Assembly: GCA_016209895.1 (NCBI GenBank)
Contig: JACQVH010000215.1
Location: 1 to 21,943 of the forward strand
Source of the DNA: Candidatus Hydrogenedentota bacterium
GTDB lineage: Bacteria; Hydrogenedentota; Hydrogenedentia; Hydrogenedentales; SLHB01
Direction: 5' to 3'
Length of the DNA stretch: 21,943 nt
In this document: positions 7,971 to 21,661 of the stretch, piece after piece
Numbering within the stretch: the stretch's first letter is position 1
Layout of the letters: each line of letters opens with the position of its first letter
Notes under the pieces: model-generated
Told to the model about the DNA's origin: nothing
The model's database searches: none
The model's input: the letters and a program-made list of their open reading frames with translations, nothing else
Position numbers and translations under genes: made by a program

Positions 7971-7974
7971 TGAA

Positions 7975-8124
7975 GTCAGGAGTCAGGAGCATGCAGACAG
8001 AGTGGTACGAACGTACGAGATATTCCCGACAAGAGTCGCAGCGATGGTTGATGCCCGTACCTGCGGACTTTCAGTTGGTCTCACGTCCTTATTCTGACTC
8101 CTGACTCCTGTCTCCTGACTCCTC
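7975..8124. repeat. Inverted heptamer-repeat arms bracketing a 105-nt unique core. Left arm is (GTCAGGA)x2 at 7976-7989. Right arm is (TCCTGAC)x5 with one TCCTGTC variant at 8092-8126.
   Basis: Read directly. The arms are reverse complements of each other (13/14 match) and are themselves tandem 7-mers. The core contains a small palindrome GTACGAACGTAC (8005-8016). The element lies in the pheA-to-PPIase intergenic gap, ending 20 nt before the GGAGGT RBS of the next gene. Confidence 0.6.
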
Positions 8125-8146
8125 AAGCAACTTACTGGAGGTCAAA

Positions 8147-9494: not shown

Positions 9495-10196
9495 ATGGAC
9501 GATGCTCAGACCATGGTGATTACGGGAACCCGAAAGGGAATTGGCCGATATCTGGTCGAGTACTACGCCGCCCGGGGCTGGCAGGTCATCGGGTGCAGCC
9601 GGGAGCCGGTGGATTTTTCGCTGCCGAATTATGAACACTACTGCCTTAGCGTGTCCGATGAGAGCGCCGTTTCGACCATGTTCGCCGCAATTCGGAAGAA
9701 GCACGGTCGGCTCGATGTGCTCATCAACAACGCCGGGATTGCCTCCATGAATCACGTCCTGCTCACTCCAATTCGGACCGTCCAGGATATACTCAACACC
9801 AACGTGGTCGGCACATTCCTATTCTGCCGGGAAGCGGCGAAGCTGATGAGAAAGCACCGCTATGGGCGTATCGTGAACTTCGCCACGGTCGCAACGCCGC
9901 TGAAACTCGAGGGAGAAGCCATGTATGCGGCTTCGAAGGCGGCGGTGGAAAGTTTGACACAAGTGCTTTCCCGGGAACTCGCTGATTTTGGTATCACCGT
10001 CAATGCCGTTGGGCCGACTCCGGTGAAGACCGACCTGATCCGCTCCGTGCCGCAGGAAAAAATGACCGCGCTCATAAACCGCCAGGCGATCCGGCGATAC
10101 GGGGAATTTCAGGACATCTCGAATGCGATTGATTTCTTTATCCGGCCCGAGAGCGATTTCGTCACGGGCCAGATTCTGTACCTCGGAGGCGTCTAG
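9495..10196 (+). CDS. Short-chain dehydrogenase/reductase (FabG-like 3-oxoacyl-ACP reductase family)
   Basis: N-terminal TGTRKGIG Rossmann motif, NNAG motif (VLINNAGIA), catalytic YAASK (Y-x3-K) and PTPVKTD. GAGG RBS upstream; 9 nt after the ACP gene. Confidence 0.85.
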   Translation: MDDAQTMVITGTRKGIGRYLVEYYAARGWQVIGCSREPVDFSLPNYEHYCLSVSDESAVSTMFAAIRKKHGRLDVLINNAGIASMNHVLLTPIRTVQDILNTNVVGTFLFCREAAKLMRKHRYGRIVNFATVATPLKLEGEAMYAASKAAVESLTQVLSRELADFGITVNAVGPTPVKTDLIRSVPQEKMTALINRQAIRRYGEFQDISNAIDFFIRPESDFVTGQILYLGGV

Positions 10197-12477: not shown

Positions 12478-13587
12478 ATGGCCTTCAAGATCGTCCCCTA
12501 TACGGATGAACATGTTGCGGCCGTGCGCGAGTTTAACCGGCGGCTGCGTGAAGGCGGGGTCGCTTTTGCGATGCCTGAGTTGCCCGTTCCCGACTGGTTG
12601 CCGATGTTAGCCGATCGGCGAATCTTCCAGGAGTATTACGTGCTCTTGGAGGACACGGTGGTTCGAGGCGGCTACGTGCTGAAGCACCAGGATTTCTTTT
12701 TGTCGGGAGAGGTGCTATCTATTGCAGACTATCGGATGCCCATATCAGAGGGCGTCGTTGACAAGGCATATAATCTGGTCGGCGTTCAACTGCTCACGGA
12801 TGCTTTGAAAAGACAGCCCGTGATGTACGGCCTTGGAATGGGCGGTTTCGACCAACCCATCGCCAAGATGCTGAAGGCCATGGGCTGGACGATGTTCGCC
12901 GTCCCGTTCTTCTTCTGGGTCAATCATCCGTTTCGCTTCTTGCGGAATATCGTGGCGCTGCGCAAGAGCGCGATGCGGCGTTTCCTTCTCGATCTATTGG
13001 CCGTTTCCGGACTGGGTTGGCTCGGAATCAAATTACTCCACTGGTTTCGACGTGAAAAATGGCATGAGTCGTGGGCATGGGAAACGCTCCCTCAGTTCGG
13101 GAGTTGGGCGGATGAATTATGGGAAGCCTGTAAGAACCAACACCCGCTGGCCGCGGTCCGTGACGCGGCGACGCTCAACATCCTATATCCTCCCGAAAAG
13201 AAAGAATTCATTAAGCTGAAGGTGTCCAGCGGAGACCGCGTCGTGGGCTGGGCCGTGCTGCTGAATACGCCCATGATCGGACACAAGCAGTTTGGAAACA
13301 TGCGGGTTGGGACGGTCGTAGACTGCCTTGCCTTGTCGAACCACAAACCGAAAGTAGTGTTCGCCGCGGTGGAGTGCCTGACTGCCGCCAGTGCTGATAT
13401 TGTCATTACCAACCAGTCCGATCAGAACTGGTGCGCCGCATTTCGTCGCACAGGCTTTCTCAGCGGCCCGTCAAACTTCATCTTCGCCGCGTCCAAGAAG
13501 CTCGCCGCGCACTTACAGCCGTTCGATGAGAAAAAGAACTCCATCCATATGACCCGCGGCGACGGCGACGGACCGATACATTTGTGA
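12478..13587 (+). CDS. Hypothetical protein, possibly a FemAB/BioF2-like GNAT-fold acyltransferase
   Basis: 369-aa ORF, 9 nt after the deacetylase-like gene. No SD, but it is the first in-frame ATG after an in-frame stop. Size and position (next to a CE4 deacetylase-like gene) match FemAB-related proteins of PEP-CTERM-type loci. I cannot see an unambiguous motif, so the function is tentative. Confidence 0.4.
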   Translation: MAFKIVPYTDEHVAAVREFNRRLREGGVAFAMPELPVPDWLPMLADRRIFQEYYVLLEDTVVRGGYVLKHQDFFLSGEVLSIADYRMPISEGVVDKAYNLVGVQLLTDALKRQPVMYGLGMGGFDQPIAKMLKAMGWTMFAVPFFFWVNHPFRFLRNIVALRKSAMRRFLLDLLAVSGLGWLGIKLLHWFRREKWHESWAWETLPQFGSWADELWEACKNQHPLAAVRDAATLNILYPPEKKEFIKLKVSSGDRVVGWAVLLNTPMIGHKQFGNMRVGTVVDCLALSNHKPKVVFAAVECLTAASADIVITNQSDQNWCAAFRRTGFLSGPSNFIFAASKKLAAHLQPFDEKKNSIHMTRGDGDGPIHL

Positions 13588-13590
13588 AAT

Positions 13591-13758
13591 GAGCAATGAG
13601 CAACGAGCAATGAGTCACGAGAGACAAGTATCGAGTACCGAGTGACGAGTAACAAGCAATCAGGGACCAAGAACCGGAAACCGGAAGCTCCGAACCAGGG
13701 ACCAGAAACCAGAAGCCAGGGACCATCCACTAGCCACTGACCACTGGTCACTGAACAC
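13591..13758. repeat. Array of 24 phased degenerate heptanucleotide tandem repeats (consensus nAGnnAC; units GAGCAAT, GAGTGAC, CAGGGAC, CAGAAAC, CGGAAAC, TGACCAC ...) filling the entire gap between convergent genes
   Basis: Read directly. From 13591 the sequence parses without slippage into 24 consecutive 7-mers. 21 of the 24 end in C and 19 carry A at position 6. It begins 4 nt after the TGA of the + gene and ends at the stop codon of the - strand Dabb gene (13758-13760). Confidence 0.85.
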
Positions 13759-14168
13759 TACTCTTTCGGCCAGTAGTCGATCACCCAGATTTTCTCGAGA
13801 AACGGTCGGGCCATGGCGACGAAATCCTGGTGGGCTTGGTGGGCGCGGTACGCTTCCATGGATTCGACGTCGTGGAAGGTTAGGAGAAAGCAGTGGGTGA
13901 AGCCTTCAGCGCGGGACTGGGCGTTCACGTCCGTGCCCCATTCGAAATCGCGGATTTCGGCGATCTTAGCCGGTAGTTGGCGAAACGCGTTCTCTATCGT
14001 AGCAATCTGTTCCGGCGACGTGCCCTCTTTGAACTTGAACAGGACCACGTGGCGCAACAGGGAATGATCTTGTGTCGGCGACGTAGCGACGACCGAGCCC
14101 TTGATCGAAATGCAGGCAGGTAACAACAACCCGGTCAAAGCGATTGACAACCACAAACTTCGCTTCAT
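13758..14168 (-). CDS. Dabb-family (stress-responsive dimeric alpha/beta-barrel) protein with lipoprotein-type signal peptide
   Basis: Real gene is the C-terminal 136 codons of ORF 13758..14735: MKRSLWLSIALTGLLLPAC (lipobox LLPAC), then HVVLFKFKEGTSPEQIATIENAFRQL...HQDFVAM, typical of the Dabb/stress-responsive protein fold. Its ATG overlaps the TGA of the upstream membrane-protein gene (ATGA at 14165-14168). The long N-terminal extension in the ORF track is out-of-frame overlap with that gene and was rejected. Confidence 0.7.
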   Translation of the reverse strand: MKRSLWLSIALTGLLLPACISIKGSVVATSPTQDHSLLRHVVLFKFKEGTSPEQIATIENAFRQLPAKIAEIRDFEWGTDVNAQSRAEGFTHCFLLTFHDVESMEAYRAHQAHQDFVAMARPFLEKIWVIDYWPKE

Positions 14169-15106
14169 TGCCGTTCCTCCTTGCTTAGCCGGTTGATTTC
14201 CCGAAAGGCGGGAGACACTTCTTCCAATCGAGATTCGGCAGCCGGGTCCGCGCCTTGGTCCTCGGCGGCGTCGAGTTGATTGATCGCAACCGCCGTGAGG
14301 GCAATCGGATCGAAGACAATCCATTTCACCATGAAGCTCAACACCACGGCGGTGAGAAAAAACACCAACCGCATCGTGCTCCATCCGGTACTTGCCGGCA
14401 AGAACATGGCGATACTTCCGAGGGGAACGAGGAAAAGCACCGTGAGCGGGACCAATAGCGCATAGCCGACGGCGCAAAATAACGCCGCGAGACGTAGCGA
14501 GTCCGATCCGGAATGGGCGTACTTGACCACCGAATCCTTTACGGTAGTGAAAACTTCCCGACTTTCCGTTCGAAACACCTTGGCCAGAATCACGTATGGC
14601 AGGTAAATCAGAGCGCCATTCGCGGCAAGTTTCGCCAGCTTGGGAGAACCGGCAAGCCTCGCGATTGGTACCAGTGACTCCAGGGAGAGTACCGAACGAT
14701 GGGTATCGCGCAGTGCGCGGAGAACGAGGCCACACAGTTGCCCAGCGCCGGTCGCGCTACGGAACCTGTCCGACACACGGGAACGCGCCCAGTTCGGTTC
14801 CGAGACGCCCCACGGCAACTGGCCTTCGTTGAGGATTTCCGTAATCAACGCGAGGTAGCCCAGCTTGATGGATGCGAACGGATCGAATCCGGCGTAGCGC
14901 GCCGCGAGGGGCAGTGCGCTCAAGACTGCGGAGAGAATGAAGAGGAGCAAGCTTGCGCCAAAGCCGAATGCCAGCCCGACGAAGCCGAGGATCATCAAGT
15001 ACGCGATCACACCTGCGCCGACCACGCCGTAAATCCCAGCCCGGTAGATCAAGTACTGCATCGGCTGGAACGCGATCTGCACCACCCGGCCCCAGTTGAC
15101 ATCCAT
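14165..15106 (-). CDS. Hypothetical polytopic integral membrane protein (about 313 aa)
   Basis: ORF 14165..15133. The second ATG (MDVNWGRV.., 15104-15106) is preceded by AAGGAGGACAGGACG, a strong SD at correct spacing. At least 6 hydrophobic helices and an acidic C-terminal tail. Overlaps the start of the Dabb gene by the 4-nt ATGA. Confidence 0.6.
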   Translation of the reverse strand: MDVNWGRVVQIAFQPMQYLIYRAGIYGVVGAGVIAYLMILGFVGLAFGFGASLLLFILSAVLSALPLAARYAGFDPFASIKLGYLALITEILNEGQLPWGVSEPNWARSRVSDRFRSATGAGQLCGLVLRALRDTHRSVLSLESLVPIARLAGSPKLAKLAANGALIYLPYVILAKVFRTESREVFTTVKDSVVKYAHSGSDSLRLAALFCAVGYALLVPLTVLFLVPLGSIAMFLPASTGWSTMRLVFFLTAVVLSFMVKWIVFDPIALTAVAINQLDAAEDQGADPAAESRLEEVSPAFREINRLSKEERQ

Positions 15107-15203
15107 CGTCCTGTCCTCCTTCCAGCACTGCATCCGGCGACCGCACCAACGAGACTATTCTCCGTATTTTCTTCCCCGGAGTCCAACTTTGTGCCAATTG
15201 GGG

Positions 15204-15312
15204 GTAAGGGACGAAAGGGACCCATGTAAGGGACCCAAAGGACTCTGTTCTTCCGGGCACGGAGGAGGAGAAGGACGGCAACGACGCCAAGGACAACGAC
15301 GACACCAGGGAC
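15204..15312. repeat. Cluster of direct repeats of AAGGGAC(C) / AAGGAC / CAGGGACC (at least 7 copies) in the 207-nt gap between the ferredoxin stop and the membrane-protein start
   Basis: Read directly: TAAGGGAC 15205-15212, AAGGGACCC 15215-15223, TAAGGGACCC 15227-15236, AAAGGAC 15237-15243, GAAGGAC 15273-15279, CAAGGAC 15291-15297, CCAGGGACC 15303-15311. The word AGGGACC is also a recurrent unit of the heptad arrays at 13591-13758 and 15675-15765. Confidence 0.45.
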
Positions 15313-15313
15313 C

Positions 15314-15673
15314 TTATGCCGGCGAAGGACGTTCGACAACCGGTGGCGGTGACTGAGTGGTCACGTTTGATGGCTGGCCGTCGAGGGTGGCGATAATTGA
15401 CTCGAGCAGATACTCCAATTCCGCTTCCGATACGTGGCTGAACCAACGGTTTTCTGGGAAGACCATCAGGTTGGGACCATGCTCGCACTTATCCTGGCAG
15501 CCGGACTGGCTCACGCGGATTTTGCTCTGAAGGTTCCGCGCTTTGACCATGCTTTTCAATTTATCGCGGAGTTCTTTGCCGCCTTTATTGGCACAGCATT
15601 CACGCTCGCCCGGCTCGCGCTGGTTGCAACAAACGAAGACGATCTTCTGAAATGGGAGGGCATGTTCTAGCAT
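15314..15673 (-). CDS. Thioredoxin-like [2Fe-2S] ferredoxin family protein
   Basis: 119 aa with the cysteine pattern of thioredoxin-like 2Fe-2S ferredoxins / NuoE-like proteins: IVFVCCNQR...GERECCANKGG...SGCQDKCEHGPNLMVFP. Start ATG at 15671-15673. The upstream 48 nt consist entirely of heptad repeats that supply an AGGAA SD-like sequence. Confidence 0.65.
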   Translation of the reverse strand: MLEHALPFQKIVFVCCNQREPGERECCANKGGKELRDKLKSMVKARNLQSKIRVSQSGCQDKCEHGPNLMVFPENRWFSHVSEAELEYLLESIIATLDGQPSNVTTQSPPPVVERPSPA

Positions 15674-15674
15674 A

Positions 15675-15765
15675 GGTTCCTGGTCCCTGGTTTCTGGTTC
15701 CCAGTTATCGGTTTCCGGTTTTCAGTTACTCGGCATTCGGTACTCGGAACTCGTCACTTGTAGCG
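15675..15765. repeat. Array of about 13 phased heptanucleotide repeats (plus-strand units GGTTCCT, GGTCCCT, GGTTTCT, GGTTTCC, CGGTACT ...), the reverse-complement family of the 13591-13758 array; extends into the last 13 codons of the large minus-strand gene
   Basis: Read directly. The reverse complement gives AGGAACC, AGGGACC, AGAAACC, GGAAACC, AGTAACT, AGTACCG, AGTGACG, the same words found in the array at 13591-13758 but inverted. The stop codon of the large gene (15722-15724) and its C-terminal residues LQVTSSEYRMPSN are encoded by repeat units. Confidence 0.75.
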
Positions 15766-18700
15766 GTTCGCCGTTAGGGGCGGTCACGCGGGCTTCCTGG
15801 ATGAATATTGTCGGAAGCGAGGTTTCGCCGGCCACGCGCTCCCAACGAACCGTGACGATATCGCCGGCGGCGAGGCGTCTGCGGTCCGCACCAACTTCGA
15901 TGATTAAGCCGCCCGCGGCCATGGGACGTGCCGTTACCTGTCGGCGCGCGAATTCTGCTCCTGGGCCTGGGAGCGTTTCGATCCAGTTTACGGCACGCGG
16001 CGGTTCCGTCTCCAGTCGGAGGAACACGCGGCCAATGTTCACGCTTCGTGGACAATCCAAATGGATCGAGGTGACCTGGTACTGATGCCGCGCGGTTTGT
16101 GCCGTTTTCAGACTCAAGGTCACCGCGCTCCGCGCGAGGTATTGAAAACCTGCCGGGAGCGTTCCTCTCAGTCCCGAGGACGGCGAGGTTACTGACACAT
16201 CCACCGCGTTTCGAGCGGTGGCGGCGATGGCCGGAGTTTCCGTAATGAAGTTGCCCGGATTGACCCAGCGAACCCGCGGCGCTTGGCGACTTCCGAACCA
16301 CACGGCGCTGTCCGTGGCGAAGTTGCGGCCCTGCACGAGCACCTGGGTACCGCCTTCTGCCGGCCCTTGCCCCGGTTCCAATCCGGCTACGACCGGCGCG
16401 TCGGGAGGCGGCAGCGGCTGTGCGTCCGCGCCGTCCCAGATGCCGTCCCCGTCGGAGTCCGGATTCAACGGATTTGTTTCACTTTCATCCATGCGGCCGT
16501 TGCGGTTGCGGTCTTCGGTTCCGTCGGGTATGCCGTCACCGTCGGAATCGGGATTCAGGCGGTCCGTTTCCCCGGAGTCCACGGTGTCATTGCGCTTGCG
16601 GTCCTCGATCTCATCGGGAAGTCCGTCGCCGTCAAGATCGTGGATTTCTTTGCCGGCATTGACCAGCCATTGAAACAGGTCTGACACGAAATGCTGATAT
16701 GATGCCTCGGACGGGGCTGCGTCTTCGAGCGGCGTCGGCGCCGCGATGAGGACCATACGCCCGCGCCCGTACGGCATGGCAATCAACAGGGCTTGGGTCG
16801 GATCGGACATCGAGCGCGCCAGGATGGCGGTCGGGTCATCCACTTGGATGGCGCAACCGCCTCGGAACGAGAGCACCGACCAGCTTCGGGTCAGCGCGTG
16901 ATTCAAAGTTCGGGAAAACGTGCCTTCGACACGCACGTTGGTGTGAATGCTGATCCCAAGGGGACTCAGCCAGTCGGTCAGAATATCGTTGTCGCTACCG
17001 GTCTGATACGCGCCCACGAAGAGTAACCCGCCTCCGGCCGCGACGAAATCCAGCAATGCCTGCCGTGTCAACATACCTCGTGTAGCCCCGGCGGCATCGA
17101 GCACGACAATTCGATAAGGCGCTAATGATTCCAGAAACGGTCCGGAGGCCCAACGGTGACTGAAATAGTGCGGTGGCCCCGAGAGCCTATCGGTAAGGCC
17201 GGAGAAGGAGTCGCGTCTTTCACGCTTCGCTCTCGCAACATCGTCCCCGCTTCCCTCGCCGCATAACCAGAGAATACGGCTGACCTCCGTATTATCCGGG
17301 ATTACGCGGAGTGCGATGGGTATCGGACTACCGGCCGCTTCGACTTGAGGATGCGTGCCGGTGAGATGCACGGTCAATGTACCTCCGACCACTTCGGTCG
17401 CTCGTCCATATTGAGCAGGGTCAACACCCATTAACATGACTCCGGGTAACGTTCCGCTACGGGGATGGACACGGAGCCACGGCATCGCATTATCATCGAG
17501 AGTCACGCGCCAAGCCGAGTTCTCGGCGAACGGCGACACAATCTGGACCGATCGAAGTTCCTGACCTGCAGCCCGCCCACTGAAGTTAATGGCCCGCGGA
17601 AGGACTGCGCGGGGCGAGCGCGCCGTCGGTTCCGGGTCCGCGCCGTCCGCGATTCCGTCCCCGTCCGTGTCCGGCGACGTGGAACTGGTGCGAAGTTTCG
17701 CCTCCTGGCCGTCGTCGAGCCCGTCCGTATCCGCATCGGGCCGCGGGAGGCTTGAAGTCGGGAGCAGTACGATGTCGGCCACAGCGCCCGTTTGAAGTTG
17801 AATCGTTGCGAGCGGATTCCCCGAAGCCGGGTCTATGGCGTGGACCCGGCTCGATTCCCCGACGAACAGGCCTTCTGTGGTCCAAGTCATGGCGGTGATT
17901 CGCGCCGGATAGGTTACCGGCGCGCCTCCCGGGCCGCCGCCGGCCCAGAGTTCGAGCCGGTTTTCGCTCGACACTGCGACGTCCGGTCCCGAAGGTGCCG
18001 GCGCCAACACGAGCGGGTGCGACACTCCGGAATACGGGACTTCCGCCTGCTTCTTGACGCCTTCTCCGGAAGTGTCAACACGAACCACGTAAGCAAAACC
18101 CGCGCCCGGAGTCCACGTTGTGGCCCAACAGACACCCTGGTCTCCCACGTGCAACACTTCGTTGTTGGACGATGCCGTCCCGGGAACTTCCAAAGGGGGA
18201 GCCAGCGCGCGGAACGTGTGTGAGTCCAGCACGTGCAAGCGCGAAGTGGTCTCGCCTGATGATGGAGCCCCGGCATACCCGGAGGTCAGCACGAGCAAAC
18301 GGGCGCCGTCCCGGCTGAGGGCGAGACCGGACGCCGCGCCGGATATTCCAGCCGTATCATCGCCCAGACGCAACTTCTCCAGCACCAGGGCGCCGGAGAC
18401 GACGTCACGTACGTGCAGAAGCGCTCCGGCGCCGTAATCGCCCTTGCAAAGCACGGCGATCTGCCCGACGGCGGGGAGTTGGACTGCGGCCACGGGTACC
18501 CCCGGAAGCGCCCATGACTGAGGACGGCTTTCGAGCGAAACGGGAACCCCGGCCGGCGACCGCAGCACGTCGAGCCGCCCGTGCCAGAGCGCCTCCTCGT
18601 CGCCACGAACGCCGAGAAGCGCGATCAGGGGCTCGCCCGTGTCGGGATCGCGCGCGATGCATCCGGCGAATTGACGCCAGCCCTCCAGCGAAATGATTTG

Positions 18701-19093
18701 GGCCGACGCAACGGGCCGGAGCGGGGCCGTCTGAAAGCCGGAAATGAAAGTCAGCGCGTCGGTACGGTCCGCGTCGTAGGCCGTCCACGGCCGACCCGTC
18801 GAGAGAACGACACCAGAGGCGTACGGCGTGAGAAGCATCGGGCCCAGCCGGGCCACACCGGGAAGGCGCTCCGCGCCGGGTAAGGCTTCGCCCCGCGCCA
18901 TATCCACGCTCTGGAGATAGACTGCGCTCGCCTCGCCGAACGCCGACAGCGTCGTAGTCCGCACCAACAATCGCTGGGAGTACCCGGAACTACCCACAAG
19001 AAGGATGGTGAGCACGAAGGCCGCGCGAAGAATGAACAATTGGCCTAGTGATTCGGCGGTGATCCCGTTATGGCTCGCGTAGGCTGGCTTCAT
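15722..19093 (-). CDS. Large secreted multidomain protein with thrombospondin type-3-like Ca-binding repeats, IPT/TIG domain and beta-rich modules (putative adhesin / surface protein)
   Basis: ORF 15722..19222. The likely start is the internal ATG at 19091-19093 (MKPAYASHNG...), followed by a hydrophobic signal/anchor segment (LGQLFILRAAFVLTILLVGSS). The 43 codons upstream look non-coding. Two blocks of D-x-D-x-DG repeats (DADTDGLDDG, DTDGDGIADG, DLDGDGLPDE, DPDSDGDGIPDG, NPDSDGDGIWDG), an IPT/TIG-like segment (GLEPGQGPAEGGTQVLVQGRNF) and a ThuA/GATase-like segment (RIVVLDAAG...GGGLLFVGAY). No PEP-CTERM or LPXTG sorting signal. Confidence 0.75.
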   Translation of the reverse strand: MKPAYASHNGITAESLGQLFILRAAFVLTILLVGSSGYSQRLLVRTTTLSAFGEASAVYLQSVDMARGEALPGAERLPGVARLGPMLLTPYASGVVLSTGRPWTAYDADRTDALTFISGFQTAPLRPVASAQIISLEGWRQFAGCIARDPDTGEPLIALLGVRGDEEALWHGRLDVLRSPAGVPVSLESRPQSWALPGVPVAAVQLPAVGQIAVLCKGDYGAGALLHVRDVVSGALVLEKLRLGDDTAGISGAASGLALSRDGARLLVLTSGYAGAPSSGETTSRLHVLDSHTFRALAPPLEVPGTASSNNEVLHVGDQGVCWATTWTPGAGFAYVVRVDTSGEGVKKQAEVPYSGVSHPLVLAPAPSGPDVAVSSENRLELWAGGGPGGAPVTYPARITAMTWTTEGLFVGESSRVHAIDPASGNPLATIQLQTGAVADIVLLPTSSLPRPDADTDGLDDGQEAKLRTSSTSPDTDGDGIADGADPEPTARSPRAVLPRAINFSGRAAGQELRSVQIVSPFAENSAWRVTLDDNAMPWLRVHPRSGTLPGVMLMGVDPAQYGRATEVVGGTLTVHLTGTHPQVEAAGSPIPIALRVIPDNTEVSRILWLCGEGSGDDVARAKRERRDSFSGLTDRLSGPPHYFSHRWASGPFLESLAPYRIVVLDAAGATRGMLTRQALLDFVAAGGGLLFVGAYQTGSDNDILTDWLSPLGISIHTNVRVEGTFSRTLNHALTRSWSVLSFRGGCAIQVDDPTAILARSMSDPTQALLIAMPYGRGRMVLIAAPTPLEDAAPSEASYQHFVSDLFQWLVNAGKEIHDLDGDGLPDEIEDRKRNDTVDSGETDRLNPDSDGDGIPDGTEDRNRNGRMDESETNPLNPDSDGDGIWDGADAQPLPPPDAPVVAGLEPGQGPAEGGTQVLVQGRNFATDSAVWFGSRQAPRVRWVNPGNFITETPAIAATARNAVDVSVTSPSSGLRGTLPAGFQYLARSAVTLSLKTAQTARHQYQVTSIHLDCPRSVNIGRVFLRLETEPPRAVNWIETLPGPGAEFARRQVTARPMAAGGLIIEVGADRRRLAAGDIVTVRWERVAGETSLPTIFIQEARVTAPNGEPLQVTSSEYRMPSN
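16430..16660 (-). repeat. Intragenic direct DNA repeats encoding tandem thrombospondin type-3 (DxDxDGxxD) units. A second block lies at about 17630-17740.
   Basis: Plus-strand repeats GCCGTCCCCGTCGGAGTCCGGATTCAACGG / GCCGTCACCGTCGGAATCGGGATTCAGGCGG / TCCGTCGCCGTCAAGATCGTGGAT are visible. They correspond to the NPDSDGDGI motifs of the encoded protein. Confidence 0.5.
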
Positions 19094-20109: not shown

Positions 20110-20688
20110 ATGACAAAAGCGTGTGCGCTCAATCCGCAAGCAATTGATTCCAACACGTATCCGGAGACGCTGCCCAACGTCTGCGTCGAAGGGCCGCGTG
20201 GACCCGTCTGCGCATGGTTTTCCGAGCGTGGCTTATCCCGACTCCACCTGTGTGGGCTGGACCTCTGTACCCTGTGGAATGCCGCCGCAATAGGCATGTA
20301 TCGGCGGCGGCATCATCAGCCAACGAGGAACGAAGCAGACCCGCGGGCCGCACGCTTGGCGGCAGCCTTGAGACGGTACCTCCAGGGAGAACCGGAAGAC
20401 TTCTCCGACGTCGAGATCGACCTAAGCGCCGGCACCGAGTTTCAGCAGGCGGTCTGGGAGGCGGCGCGCAAAGTCGCGTGGGGTAGACTATCCTCTTACG
20501 GAGACTTGGCCCGTCTGATAGGCCGTACCACGGATACGGCGCGCGCCGTAGGCCAGGCGTTGGGCGCAAACCCCATCGCTATCGTCGTTCCCTGTCACCG
20601 GTTCGTCGCGTCAGACGGCTCCCTCGGCGGCTTCTCCGGCGGACTCGAATGGAAGCGGGCGCTGCTGCGGCTGGAAGGACACTTCTGA
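20110..20688 (+). CDS. ogt: Methylated-DNA--protein-cysteine methyltransferase (O6-alkylguanine-DNA alkyltransferase)
   Basis: Active-site motif IVVPCHRFV (PCHR), helix-turn-helix region (YGDLARLIGRTTDTARAVGQALGANP) and C-terminal GGLEWKRALLRLEG. ATG at 20110 is 9 nt after a GAAAGG-type RBS. The ORF-track start at 20104 is a TTG two codons upstream. Confidence 0.8.
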   Translation: MTKACALNPQAIDSNTYPETLPNVCVEGPRGPVCAWFSERGLSRLHLCGLDLCTLWNAAAIGMYRRRHHQPTRNEADPRAARLAAALRRYLQGEPEDFSDVEIDLSAGTEFQQAVWEAARKVAWGRLSSYGDLARLIGRTTDTARAVGQALGANPIAIVVPCHRFVASDGSLGGFSGGLEWKRALLRLEGHF

Positions 20689-20775
20689 GTGCGGAATGTG
20701 GATTGTGGATTGCGGAATGAACCAATTACGGATTGTGGAATGTTGAACGCCAAGAGCCAAAGGCCAAAGGAACCG
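20689..20775. repeat. Phased heptanucleotide repeat array immediately after the ogt stop: GTGCGGA, ATGTGGA, TTGTGGA, TTGCGGA ... then TTGTGGA, ATGTTGA, ACGCCAA, GAGCCAA, AGGCCAA, AGGAACC
   Basis: Read directly. Begins 1 nt after the TGA of ogt. 7-nt register with one 2-nt slip around 20724-20732. Unit family (nTGnGGA, nnGCCAA) differs from the 13591 and 15675 arrays. Confidence 0.65.
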
Positions 20776-20873: not shown

Positions 20874-20908
20874 TCGTCGTTTAGAATTTAGAATCTGCAA
20901 TTTGGAAT
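20874..20908. repeat. Short heptanucleotide repeat array TCGTCGT, TTAGAAT, TTAGAAT, CTGCAAT, TTGGAAT abutting the stop codon of the minus-strand esterase gene
   Basis: Read directly; five consecutive 7-mers with consensus TTnGAAT ending at the TGA (20909-20911, minus strand) of the hydrolase gene. Confidence 0.5.
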
Positions 20909-21661
20909 TCACTTCTTCTGTTTTAGCAGCCACTGGATGGTCTTCGCATCGCCATAGGCGTCGTCCCAGGAATTGTGCTTTGCCTTGGGGATTTCCGTGT
21001 ATTTGATCTGCCCGCCCGCCTTCTTCACCGCCTCGACCATTTTGCGGGACTCCGCGGGCTTGACGACGTCGTCCTCGGCGCCGTGAAACGCCCAGATCGG
21101 CAAGGCCGCAAGTGCTGTGGCGTCCTCCTCTTTTCCGCCGCCACAGATCGGCATTAACGCGGCGTATACGTCCGTGCGCTTTGCCCCCAACATCCACGTG
21201 GCGTAGCCACCGAGGGAAATTCCGGTCAGGTAGATGCGGTTCGGGTCAATGTTGTACTCCGCGCGGGTTTGTTCGAGCGCTTTCTCGATATGCGATACGG
21301 CGCGGTCCCAGAAACCCAACCCCGGGCACTGCGGAAAGACCACCACGCACGGGAATCGCTCCGGATGCTTGCGGATGGCGTGACCGATCCCCACGTCGGT
21401 CGGTAGCAGCCCATCGTTGCCGCGTTCCCCGATCCCGTGCAGAAACACGATCAACGGCCACCCCTGCGCCCGGTCATAGTTGCGCGGCACATAGACGGCA
21501 TAGGCCCGTTCCTTGCCGTCTGCTACCATGGTCTTATTGAGGAAGCCCGTCACAATCCCTTGGCTCTCTGCCGCTTGGCCGCTGATTGACTTCGTCGTAG
21601 CACAACCGTTGCTCAACATCACGACCGCAAACACAGCCACGAAGGTCCATTTCACGTTCAT
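20909..21661 (-). CDS. Alpha/beta-hydrolase family esterase (phospholipase/carboxylesterase-like) lipoprotein
   Basis: Signal peptide with lipobox (VVMLSNGCATT). Esterase core motifs: LIVFLHGIGERG (oxyanion region), nucleophile elbow GISLGG, and C-terminal FHGAEDDVV / His region (KAKHNSWDD). Confidence 0.8.
   Translation of the reverse strand: MNVKWTFVAVFAVVMLSNGCATTKSISGQAAESQGIVTGFLNKTMVADGKERAYAVYVPRNYDRAQGWPLIVFLHGIGERGNDGLLPTDVGIGHAIRKHPERFPCVVVFPQCPGLGFWDRAVSHIEKALEQTRAEYNIDPNRIYLTGISLGGYATWMLGAKRTDVYAALMPICGGGKEEDATALAALPIWAFHGAEDDVVKPAESRKMVEAVKKAGGQIKYTEIPKAKHNSWDDAYGDAKTIQWLLKQKK

Follow-up and report, generated by a model that had tools for sequence, protein, structure and literature searches.

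The window, by which we mean the whole stretch of DNA analyzed, is a complete 21,943-bp contig of a Candidatus Hydrogenedentes MAG. At the junction of a gene for a large protein and a gene for a ferredoxin-like protein it carries an array of heptanucleotide units, here called A2, on the minus strand, which is the mRNA-sense strand at this place. The features discussed below are as follows.

7974..7989, plus strand: (AGTCAGG)2.3 array, starting 4 nt past the pheA stop codon
8094..8123, plus strand: (CTGACTC)4.3 array, the inverted partner of 7974-7989, 24 nt ahead of the PPIase gene start
13588..13760, plus strand: array A1, about 24 in-phase heptads, with the same two unit classes as A2 in inverted orientation
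13758-14168, minus strand: Dabb-domain lipoprotein gene, 136 aa, with a AAGGAGGA Shine-Dalgarno sequence
14165-15133, minus strand: membrane protein gene
15314..15673, minus strand: ferredoxin-like gene, 119 aa, with a weak DUF1636 match and a CxxC-rich N-terminus
15674..15721, minus strand: intercistronic spacer of 48 nt, array units throughout
15675..15758, minus strand: heptanucleotide array A2, twelve in-phase 7-nt units
15678..15681, minus strand: AGGA inside the last unit AGGAACC; weakly Shine-Dalgarno-like, -8 to -5 relative to the ferredoxin-like ATG
15722..15758, minus strand: the part of A2 within the large gene, encoding V1113-TSSEYRMPSN and the TGA at 15722-15724
15722..19093, minus strand: large gene, IPT/TIG domain-containing protein of 1123 aa (NCBI start; the ORF reaches 19222)
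20693..20770, plus strand: composite heptad array, GCGGAAT/GTGGATT then GCCAAAG, starting 5 nt past the ogt stop codon
20880..20909, plus strand: (TTTAGAA)-type array abutting the stop codon of a hydrolase gene (20909-21661, minus strand)

The longest ORFs at 13758-14735 and 14757-15488 on the minus strand are misleading. The 243-aa ORF and the first ~190 codons (the N-terminal two thirds) of the 325-aa ORF are Arg-rich and look spurious, and the membrane protein and Dabb lipoprotein genes appear to be the real genes there. An 18-nt tandem repeat (AAGGACAACAACGACACC, 2.3 copies), which is not of the heptad class, occupies 15271-15312 directly after the ferredoxin-like stop codon, in the 180-nt gap ahead of the membrane-protein gene.

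Read along the minus strand from 15758 to 15675, the first six units of A2 are AGTGACG, AGTTCCG, AGTACCG, AATGCCG, AGTAACT and GAAAACC, and the last six are GGAAACC, GATAACT, GGGAACC, AGAAACC, AGGGACC and AGGAACC. An earlier reading of this DNA made from the letters alone, here called the sequence-only reading, had listed twelve units, each of which is present exactly on this strand. The extent it gave to the array, 15675-15765, holds for 15675-15758 and fails for 15759-15765 (CGCTACA), which are not periodic. Tandem Repeats Finder places three period-7 rows in A2 (15675-15701, 15689-15721 and 15727-15753) and one period-21 row. When the whole 21.9-kb window was scanned for periods 2-15 at a threshold of 28/42 self-matches, 76 scan windows passed at period 7, 22 at period 14 and four, marginally, at period 15, and no other period was represented; at 26/42 or more, the period-7 regions were 8074-8140, 13573-13770, 15670-15780 and 20680-20774. 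Lag-7 identity within A2 is 0.65, compared to ~0.2 at other lags. The coding segment 15722-15765 taken alone gives 22/37 lag-7 matches; the 20,918 background windows average 9.3 ± 2.7 and reach 18 at most.

That chance or codon usage produced this periodicity has nothing in its favor except the shortness of A2. No background window comes near the observed lag-7 score, shuffles and background scans refute the explanation, and codon usage is further disfavored because 7 is not a multiple of 3; we regard its probability as negligible. A2 is a genuine heptanucleotide repeat array, its twelve units running head to tail and in phase where at least three to four copies define such an array. Mismatches between units grow with distance along the array, from 2.4 at lag 1 to ~4 at lag 5-6, and adjacent identical units are present together with 21- and 28-nt higher-order copies. 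Phase is held across 12-24 units with zero indels despite ~35% unit divergence, which fits unit-wise turnover or selection better than passive decay. At 15689-15730, A2 units 3-5 and 6-8 form a 21-nt higher-order duplication; the TGA stop codon lies at the junction of units 7/8, and the paralogous junction in the other 21-nt copy is TGG.

The relation of A2 to its two genes is as the sequence-only reading had described it. From the stop codon to the ferredoxin-like ATG at 15673-15671 the 48-nt gap is array throughout; the TGA spans a unit junction, and residues V1113-N1123 (VTSSEYRMPSN), about the last ten codons, are array-encoded. The AGGA in the final unit is also the sole Shine-Dalgarno (SD)-like motif within 25 nt upstream of the ferredoxin-like ATG; other genes in the contig carry GGAGG motifs. 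The motif itself is plain, and we infer that it is used for ribosome binding at the ferredoxin-like gene.

The same reading had offered A2 as a possible coupling or termination element in the mRNA, and this proposal fared poorly. The sense RNA of 15660-15790 has no stable fold above shuffles (z=-1.2), and the two values for A1 are z=0.06 and z=-1.2. The A2 sense strand is free of terminator-like sites and hit counts equal the shuffle expectation, the sole terminator-like match in A2 being a weak 5-bp stem on the opposite strand. No Rfam 15 covariance model matched at gathering score anywhere in the window, and the stop and start codons stand 48 nt apart. An intrinsic terminator was rejected on the lack of a stable hairpin and of a sense-strand site, and an Rfam RNA on the lack of a match in the window. 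In a test for CsrA/Rsm-type sites, four GGA motifs were found in A2, one of them in the SD-like AGGA, and hairpin presentation is not predicted. The A2 RNA was shown to be unstructured, and a dedicated RNA role for A2 is not supported.

Two repeat types known from other bacteria were also rejected. A G-quadruplex repeat requires at least four G3+ tracts, and A2 has two sense GGG runs (GGGAACC and AGGGACC) and zero on the antisense strand. A TAACTGA direct repeat requires at least two tandem units, and A2 holds one TAACTGA (in AGTAACTGAAAACC) and one TAACTGG, which are not adjacent.

A2 might instead be a functional RNA spacer that sets translation of the ferredoxin-like gene. It would be kept as an A-rich, T-poor, unstructured ribosome standby or landing site with repeated GGA/AGGA or, alternatively, as a binding array for an RNA-binding protein with a footprint of ~7 nt (cold-shock-domain, S1 or CsrA-like). 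Consistent with this, a single nucleotide separates the end of A2 from the ATG, the sole SD-like motif there belongs to A2, its GGA motifs meet no competing structure, and in L205, one of the contigs carrying an orthologue of the large protein, a heptad array fills a 33-nt stop-to-start gap. TAACTGA heptads of Beggiatoaceae likewise end 1 nt upstream of starts and have been proposed as translational elements (PMC4679880), and deleting heptamer repeats in Nostoc altered reporter output (bioRxiv 10.1101/2022.06.06.494920). However, a sequence-specific binder is disfavored, as the units drift along the array and the six arrays of the window have unrelated units; most arrays in the window come after genes and not before them; other genes of the window have a proper GGAGG; and arrays are not conserved in relatives at the A2 junction or at others. 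We consider a spacer function unlikely.

To examine the C-terminal tail, orthologues of the large protein were collected. A search of 1.84 billion representatives yielded ~110 full-length orthologues of 30-44% identity, and a profile search gave closer ones of up to 49% identity. Clear homology with all orthologues ends at the V1113 column, the first codon of the array. Past V1113 the orthologue tails measure 3-34 aa (median 17) and include a terminal strand of moderate conservation, in which position +7 is [LIV] and position +9 is L. On a profile of these tails, TSSEYRMPSN scores -0.5, whereas the orthologues score 6.0 ± 3.9 (10th percentile 1.3); the score of random peptides is -9.2 ± 6.4, and 8% reach or exceed the window tail. 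In an AlphaFold2 model (19 sequences, mean pLDDT 78), residues 1112-1119, including TSSEYR, are the family's final beta-strands, with pLDDT ~77.

The tail DNA clearly belongs to the array, and the tail peptide is atypical for the family yet, according to the model, structurally compatible with it. The sequence-only reading had suggested that the repeat may have created a new C-terminus and stop codon. The orthologue alignment bears this out to the extent that homology is lost at V1113 and the tail scores as atypical; novelty of the terminus does not follow, given the 8% of random peptides and the retained beta-strand. Because the random-peptide and AlphaFold2 results are not decisive, the new C-terminus may equally be tail DNA that was homogenized with the array or seeded it, and since the array-encoded tail is still modeled as the last beta-strand, it may not be new.

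Spread in the reverse direction would make the ancestral coding tail the seed unit, from which the array grew into the gap, with no new C-terminus. The tail has a hydrophobic residue at +7 and P at +8, like orthologues P0018, P0023 and P0025, it outscores 92% of random peptides, it is predicted as a terminal beta-strand, and phmmer alignments to about ten orthologues extend to residue 1119-1122. However, a 21-nt echo, as expected of three heptads, links GTGACGAGTTCC (VTSS) and ATGCCGAGTAAC (MPSN), with 9/12 bases identical. M(+7)P(+8) is thus also an echo of V(0)T(+1), and the likeness of the tail's M-P to some orthologues may be a by-product of the repeat. Furthermore, the tail units AGTGACG, AGTACCG and AGTAAC recur in the non-coding A1 and in Chloroflexota arrays (L117 and L035), and the profile score of the tail lies below the 10th percentile of orthologues. 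We give this direction of spread a low probability. In another orthologue, P0002 (ENA ERZ1426824), the inserts SRLRGNDGGGRGNDGGGH and SRFRGNDDGDG, absent from the window protein, resemble a dispersed DNA repeat read in frame, and P0002 may therefore be a further case of a repeat within a gene of this family.

Array A1 fills the whole gap between the convergent genes 12478-13587 (plus strand) and 13758-14168 (minus strand), from stop codon to stop codon. A1 and A2 had been described in the sequence-only reading as inverted homologous copies on the strength of exact words in common. The word sharing is real: in inverted orientation they have 32 7-mers in common, compared to 2.2 ± 2.0 in dinucleotide shuffles and 0.8 ± 1.2 in random window segments, and in direct orientation none. 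Their local alignment score is 55 where 17 ± 2.8 is expected, and the inverted arms align over 87 nt without gaps at 70% complementarity, 1971 nt apart, with a longest exact match of 12 nt. Copying is another matter. With the order of A2 units fully shuffled, the best gapless match to A1 was 51.6 ± 2.6 against 58 observed (p=0.02), but with units shuffled only within the two classes it was 58.3 ± 2.0 (p=0.62), and in alignments to A2, ACC-type arrays of unrelated phyla are no worse than A1 (56 vs 55). Only for the GAGTxxC half of A2 is A1 the best partner, at 39 vs 31 for the runner-up, a Chloroflexaceae array. In view of the within-class shuffle and foreign-array controls, A1 and A2 hold two shared unit classes in the same order without evidence of a copied segment, and their likeness comes, judged from the sequences, from drawing on common unit classes.

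A duplex of A2 with the reverse complement of A1 in the operon transcript has a predicted energy of -107.6 kcal/mol (shuffles -62.5 ± 5.5). This pairing potential is automatic, because the shared unit classes stand in opposite orientation. It is nonetheless conceivable that a single long-range inverted repeat has A2 and A1 as its arms. At the RNA level, the minus-strand transcript would pair and loop out the ferredoxin-like, membrane protein and Dabb lipoprotein genes, with the 3' end protected or the SD masked; at the DNA level, an insertion would have split a single hairpin-type intergenic region, of which the arms would be what is left. The length and complementarity of the arms at this spacing speak for it, as does the fact that A1 is the best duplex partner of A2 in the window besides A2's own locus. 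Inverted heptad arrays also close other gaps in the window, and inverted pairs are common in Xanthomonas (PMC4692102) and accompany ~10% of ACC-type arrays among the matches listed. However, the shared unit classes fully explain the complementarity, foreign arrays match A2 equally, and the longest exact match is short. Local inverted pairs elsewhere are 16-180 nt apart and not 2 kb, and translation of the mRNA between the arms would oppose pairing. We regard long-range arms as very improbable. A mobile cassette with terminal inverted repeats, which would enclose the same three genes, was rejected since there is no transposase among them. A REP/MITE-like element was rejected as an internal palindrome is lacking, the copies vary from one unit to the next and the A1-A2 similarity is at the level of classes only.

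At least six heptad arrays stand in the 22-kb contig, where period 7 is specifically over-represented. All arrays in the window touch a coding boundary or stand within 24 nt of one, and for 6/7 array stretches the distance to a stop codon is 0-5 nt. Heptad arrays are absent from both divergent (promoter) gaps of the window. Within the contig, the arrays are thus intergenic, near or overlapping stop codons, and avoided between divergent genes. Two local pairs were observed besides A1 and A2. The arrays at 7974-7989 and 8094-8123 close a hairpin of ~150 nt that fills the pheA-PPIase gap (-67.6 kcal/mol, z=-3.1), and 1/200 shuffles folds as well. Those at 20693-20770 and 20880-20909 stand at both ends of the ogt/hydrolase convergent gap, each at a stop codon; the ends of these arrays pair in the MFE and centroid folds, and the region as a whole has z=-1.1 only.

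Relatives were sought by several routes. The large protein found no relative among the genome contigs of GTDB representatives, from which it follows that the species is not one of them, and exact-sequence look-ups of the window proteins for other strains returned no match on record. In a metagenome-contig scan with the orthologue alignment, 0/80 loci encoded an orthologue; these loci are uninformative, because the back-translated patterns came from Asp-rich calcium-binding repeats. None of seven orthologue contigs keeps the large gene in synteny with the ferredoxin-like gene. Five of the seven have no period-7 array, and arrays occur sporadically and at other junctions. Two of the contigs, L206 and L207, resemble the window in uvrD-pheA synteny; in place of the 176 nt of arrays present in the window, their gaps measure 20 and 13 nt and are array-free. 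In another Hydrogenedentes MAG (L204, 9804-10272), (TTGGATT)4 begins 2 nt past the upstream stop codon, and two inverted (AATCCAA)n arrays stand ahead of the orthologue, inside its annotated 5' end; for this reason the annotated orthologue start at 10001 is probably too far upstream.

To survey the repeat class more widely, the exact pattern ACCRGRRACCRGRRACCRGRRACC was scanned against one genome per species. It matched at least 120 ACC-type stretches in more than 15 phyla, our estimate of the chance expectation being ~2. Among the matches listed, sources include Acidobacteriota, Planctomycetota, Verrucomicrobiota, Gemmatimonadota, Xanthomonadales, Bacteroidota, Chloroflexota, Actinomycetota, Omnitrophota, CPR and other groups, and at least 12 genomes were matched two or three times. 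The ACC-type loci, again as listed, hold 60 more period-7 arrays >300 nt from the match, compared with 8, 14 and 2 for periods 6, 8 and 9. In 568 kb of metagenome contigs chosen regardless of repeats there were 4 period-7 arrays. Array density per 100 kb is ~27 in the window, 0.7 in the unselected metagenome contigs and 7 in genomes picked for an ACC-type array. The contrast between 60 arrays and 4 in unselected contigs indicates that heptad richness is a trait of particular genomes, largely independent of unit sequence. The units themselves are partly shared, as 20/60 foreign arrays lie within one mismatch of a window unit (permuted units 9.2 ± 2.7).

Several of these foreign loci deserve mention. 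The window unit class CTGACTC occurs in a Vicinamibacterales locus (L069 5521-5574), GAGTGAC in a Chloroflexaceae locus (L117 7005-7061), the GGCGAGT and CTGACCA classes in a Chloroflexia locus (L035 1900-2020), and the GCGGAAT class both in a Bacteroidales MAG (L033 7378-7514) and in orthologue contig L205 (9959-10010). In L004, L006, L011, L012, L094, L095 and L106, from Thermoanaerobaculia, Acidobacteriota, Omnitrophota and Terriglobia, (AGAAACC)n is followed 16-70 nt on by its exact inverse (GGTTTCT)n, and several of these pairs then carry a T-run. They look like long heptad-built hairpins resembling expanded terminator stems. Among the matches listed, ~10% of ACC-type arrays have an inverted partner within 400 nt.

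The position of arrays relative to gene ends was counted in 192 arrays from loci L001-L120 (the ACC-type loci, that is, the matches listed) and L201-L207. The test was based on stop codons, with a shifted-window control (700 nt) and a stop-free-array control; it replaced a gene context drawn from the longest ORFs of the 120 foreign loci, since arrays that lack stop codons give rise to spurious ORFs. A long ORF ends at or inside the array in 43% of the 192 arrays, compared to 8% for windows shifted 700 nt, and the stop codon mostly lies -5 to +9 nt from the detected array start. Where ORFs end on one strand only, G exceeds C on the sense strand of that ORF in 49/60 arrays (49 vs 11). After control for the stop-codon artefact the excess is 24 vs 6, and in arrays stop-free on both strands it is 19 vs 7. 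This suggests selection on orientation at stop-adjacent arrays, for example to avoid a C-rich, Rho-loading sense RNA. Across phyla, the excess of G over C and the start at stop codons hold whatever the unit sequence, and what was observed in Xanthomonas and Nostoc is thereby extended to non-G-quadruplex units; A2 itself has G=C.

In many prokaryotic genomes the most abundant long simple-sequence repeats (LSSRs) are reported to be heptamers, and polymerase slippage has been proposed to cause them (Mrazek et al. 2007, as cited in PMC4679880 and PMC4692102). The Xanthomonas GGGAATC and Nostoc GGGGAYT heptads favor gaps between aligned ORFs and seldom lie between divergent ones (Rehm et al. 2015, PMC4692102). 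[quoted passage not shown] Common to these repeats and the window arrays are the period of 7, many arrays per genome, location between aligned or convergent ORFs, proximity to or overlap with stop codons, inverted pairs, and unconserved length and position. In contrast to them, the window arrays are far more degenerate, switch unit class within an array, and reside in a Hydrogenedentes host; their units RRRRACC and GAGTxxC cannot form an intramolecular G-quadruplex, as there are at most two GGG runs. TAACTGA direct repeats are known from marine Beggiatoaceae, cyanobacteria and Bacteroidetes (MacGregor 2015, PMC4679880), where sets end 1 nt before starts, 14/169 overlap the upstream ORF end, and a translation role was suggested where a canonical SD is absent. 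A2 resembles them in its distance to the start codon and its overlap with the upstream ORF end, and differs in having no tandem TAACTGA; most arrays in the window, moreover, follow stops rather than precede starts.

Geobacter metallireducens carries GGACCGG x4 (49 copies) and MTYCTGA x5 elements of fixed copy number 4-5, annotated as regulatory sites or RNA elements, some of them inside genes (PMC2700814). By rotation, GGACCGG is ACCGGGG, of the RGRRACC class of A2 and A1, and MTYCTGA is of the class of the CTGACTC array at 8094-8123. The fixed copy number and the within-gene copies are Geobacter features, unlike the window arrays. Cyanobacterial STRR heptamers are, like the window arrays, tandem intergenic arrays with several distinct units per genome; the window arrays differ from them in phylum, base composition and units. 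Like REP/BIME palindromes and intrinsic terminators, A2 occupies the 3' flank of a gene, and inverted heptad arrays elsewhere in the window close long hairpins; unlike these elements, A2 has no internal palindrome, stable hairpin or U-tract. No report of such heptamer repeats in Hydrogenedentes was found in the literature. A2 is a member of a known, poorly understood class of heptanucleotide repeats, here in a new lineage and with non-G-quadruplex units, and since it belongs to that class it is not a new kind of element.

For the origin of A2, we favor, as the probable explanation on sequence grounds, unit-wise replication slippage that inflated a tiny intercistronic gap and rewrote the tail of the gene. 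The IPT/TIG-protein gene and the ferredoxin-like gene would originally have been separated by a very short gap. Slippage would have lengthened the array there by 7 nt (one unit) or 21 nt (three units) at a time, and point mutation would have come afterwards. Growth or homogenization would have crossed the stop codon and made repeat units of the TGA and the last ten codons, and A2 would have come to make up the entire intercistronic spacer, its last unit supplying the weak AGGA. Stepwise local duplication is expected to leave unit similarity that decays with distance, and the adjacent identical units and the 21- and 28-nt copies fit slippage. In further support, 7 is the one enriched period of the window and keeps to intergenic 3' flanks; relatives with uvrD-pheA synteny have gaps of only 20 and 13 nt, arrays being sporadic in orthologue contigs; array density is far higher in the window than in unselected contigs, and ACC-type arrays recur across phyla; the coding tail is both periodic and atypical for its family; fold, terminator and Rfam searches were negative; and published heptamer repeats overlap upstream ORF ends and stop codons (PMC4679880, PMC4692102). 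Against slippage as the whole explanation, the stop-anchored starts and the sense-strand G over C across phyla hint at selection on orientation; the unbroken phase of the units and the beta-strand model of the tail also count against it.

This leads to a broader alternative, in which period-7 arrays are not passive slippage debris and would instead be left by a process, conserved and sensitive to orientation, that acts on the 3' ends of genes in many bacterial phyla. The arrays' start at stop codons, the sense-strand G over C, the frequent inverted pairs and the partly shared unit repertoire are the basis for this idea, which we rate as quite unlikely. In one version the C-rich strand may load Rho or terminate antisense transcription; alternatively, the arrays could be bound by a factor whose footprint is 7 nt. 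Were the Rho or antisense version true, each gene would be shielded from convergent or antisense read-through, and under a 3'-end process of either kind A2 and A1 would bracket a three-gene sub-unit of the operon.

On the favored slippage origin, A2 would account both for the unusual C-terminus of the large protein and for the spacer between the two genes in this genome of an uncultured Hydrogenedentes bacterium, and its local consequences are small. For annotators it is a warning that repeat arrays here shape gene ends and long spurious ORFs. The positional and strand rules that hold across phyla are a more interesting lead than A2 itself. Because non-G-quadruplex heptamers obey the same positional rules in many phyla, the G-quadruplex explanation put forward for Xanthomonas and Nostoc is disfavored, and the rules raise the questions of why a period of 7 is favored and why G exceeds C on the sense strand just after stop codons.
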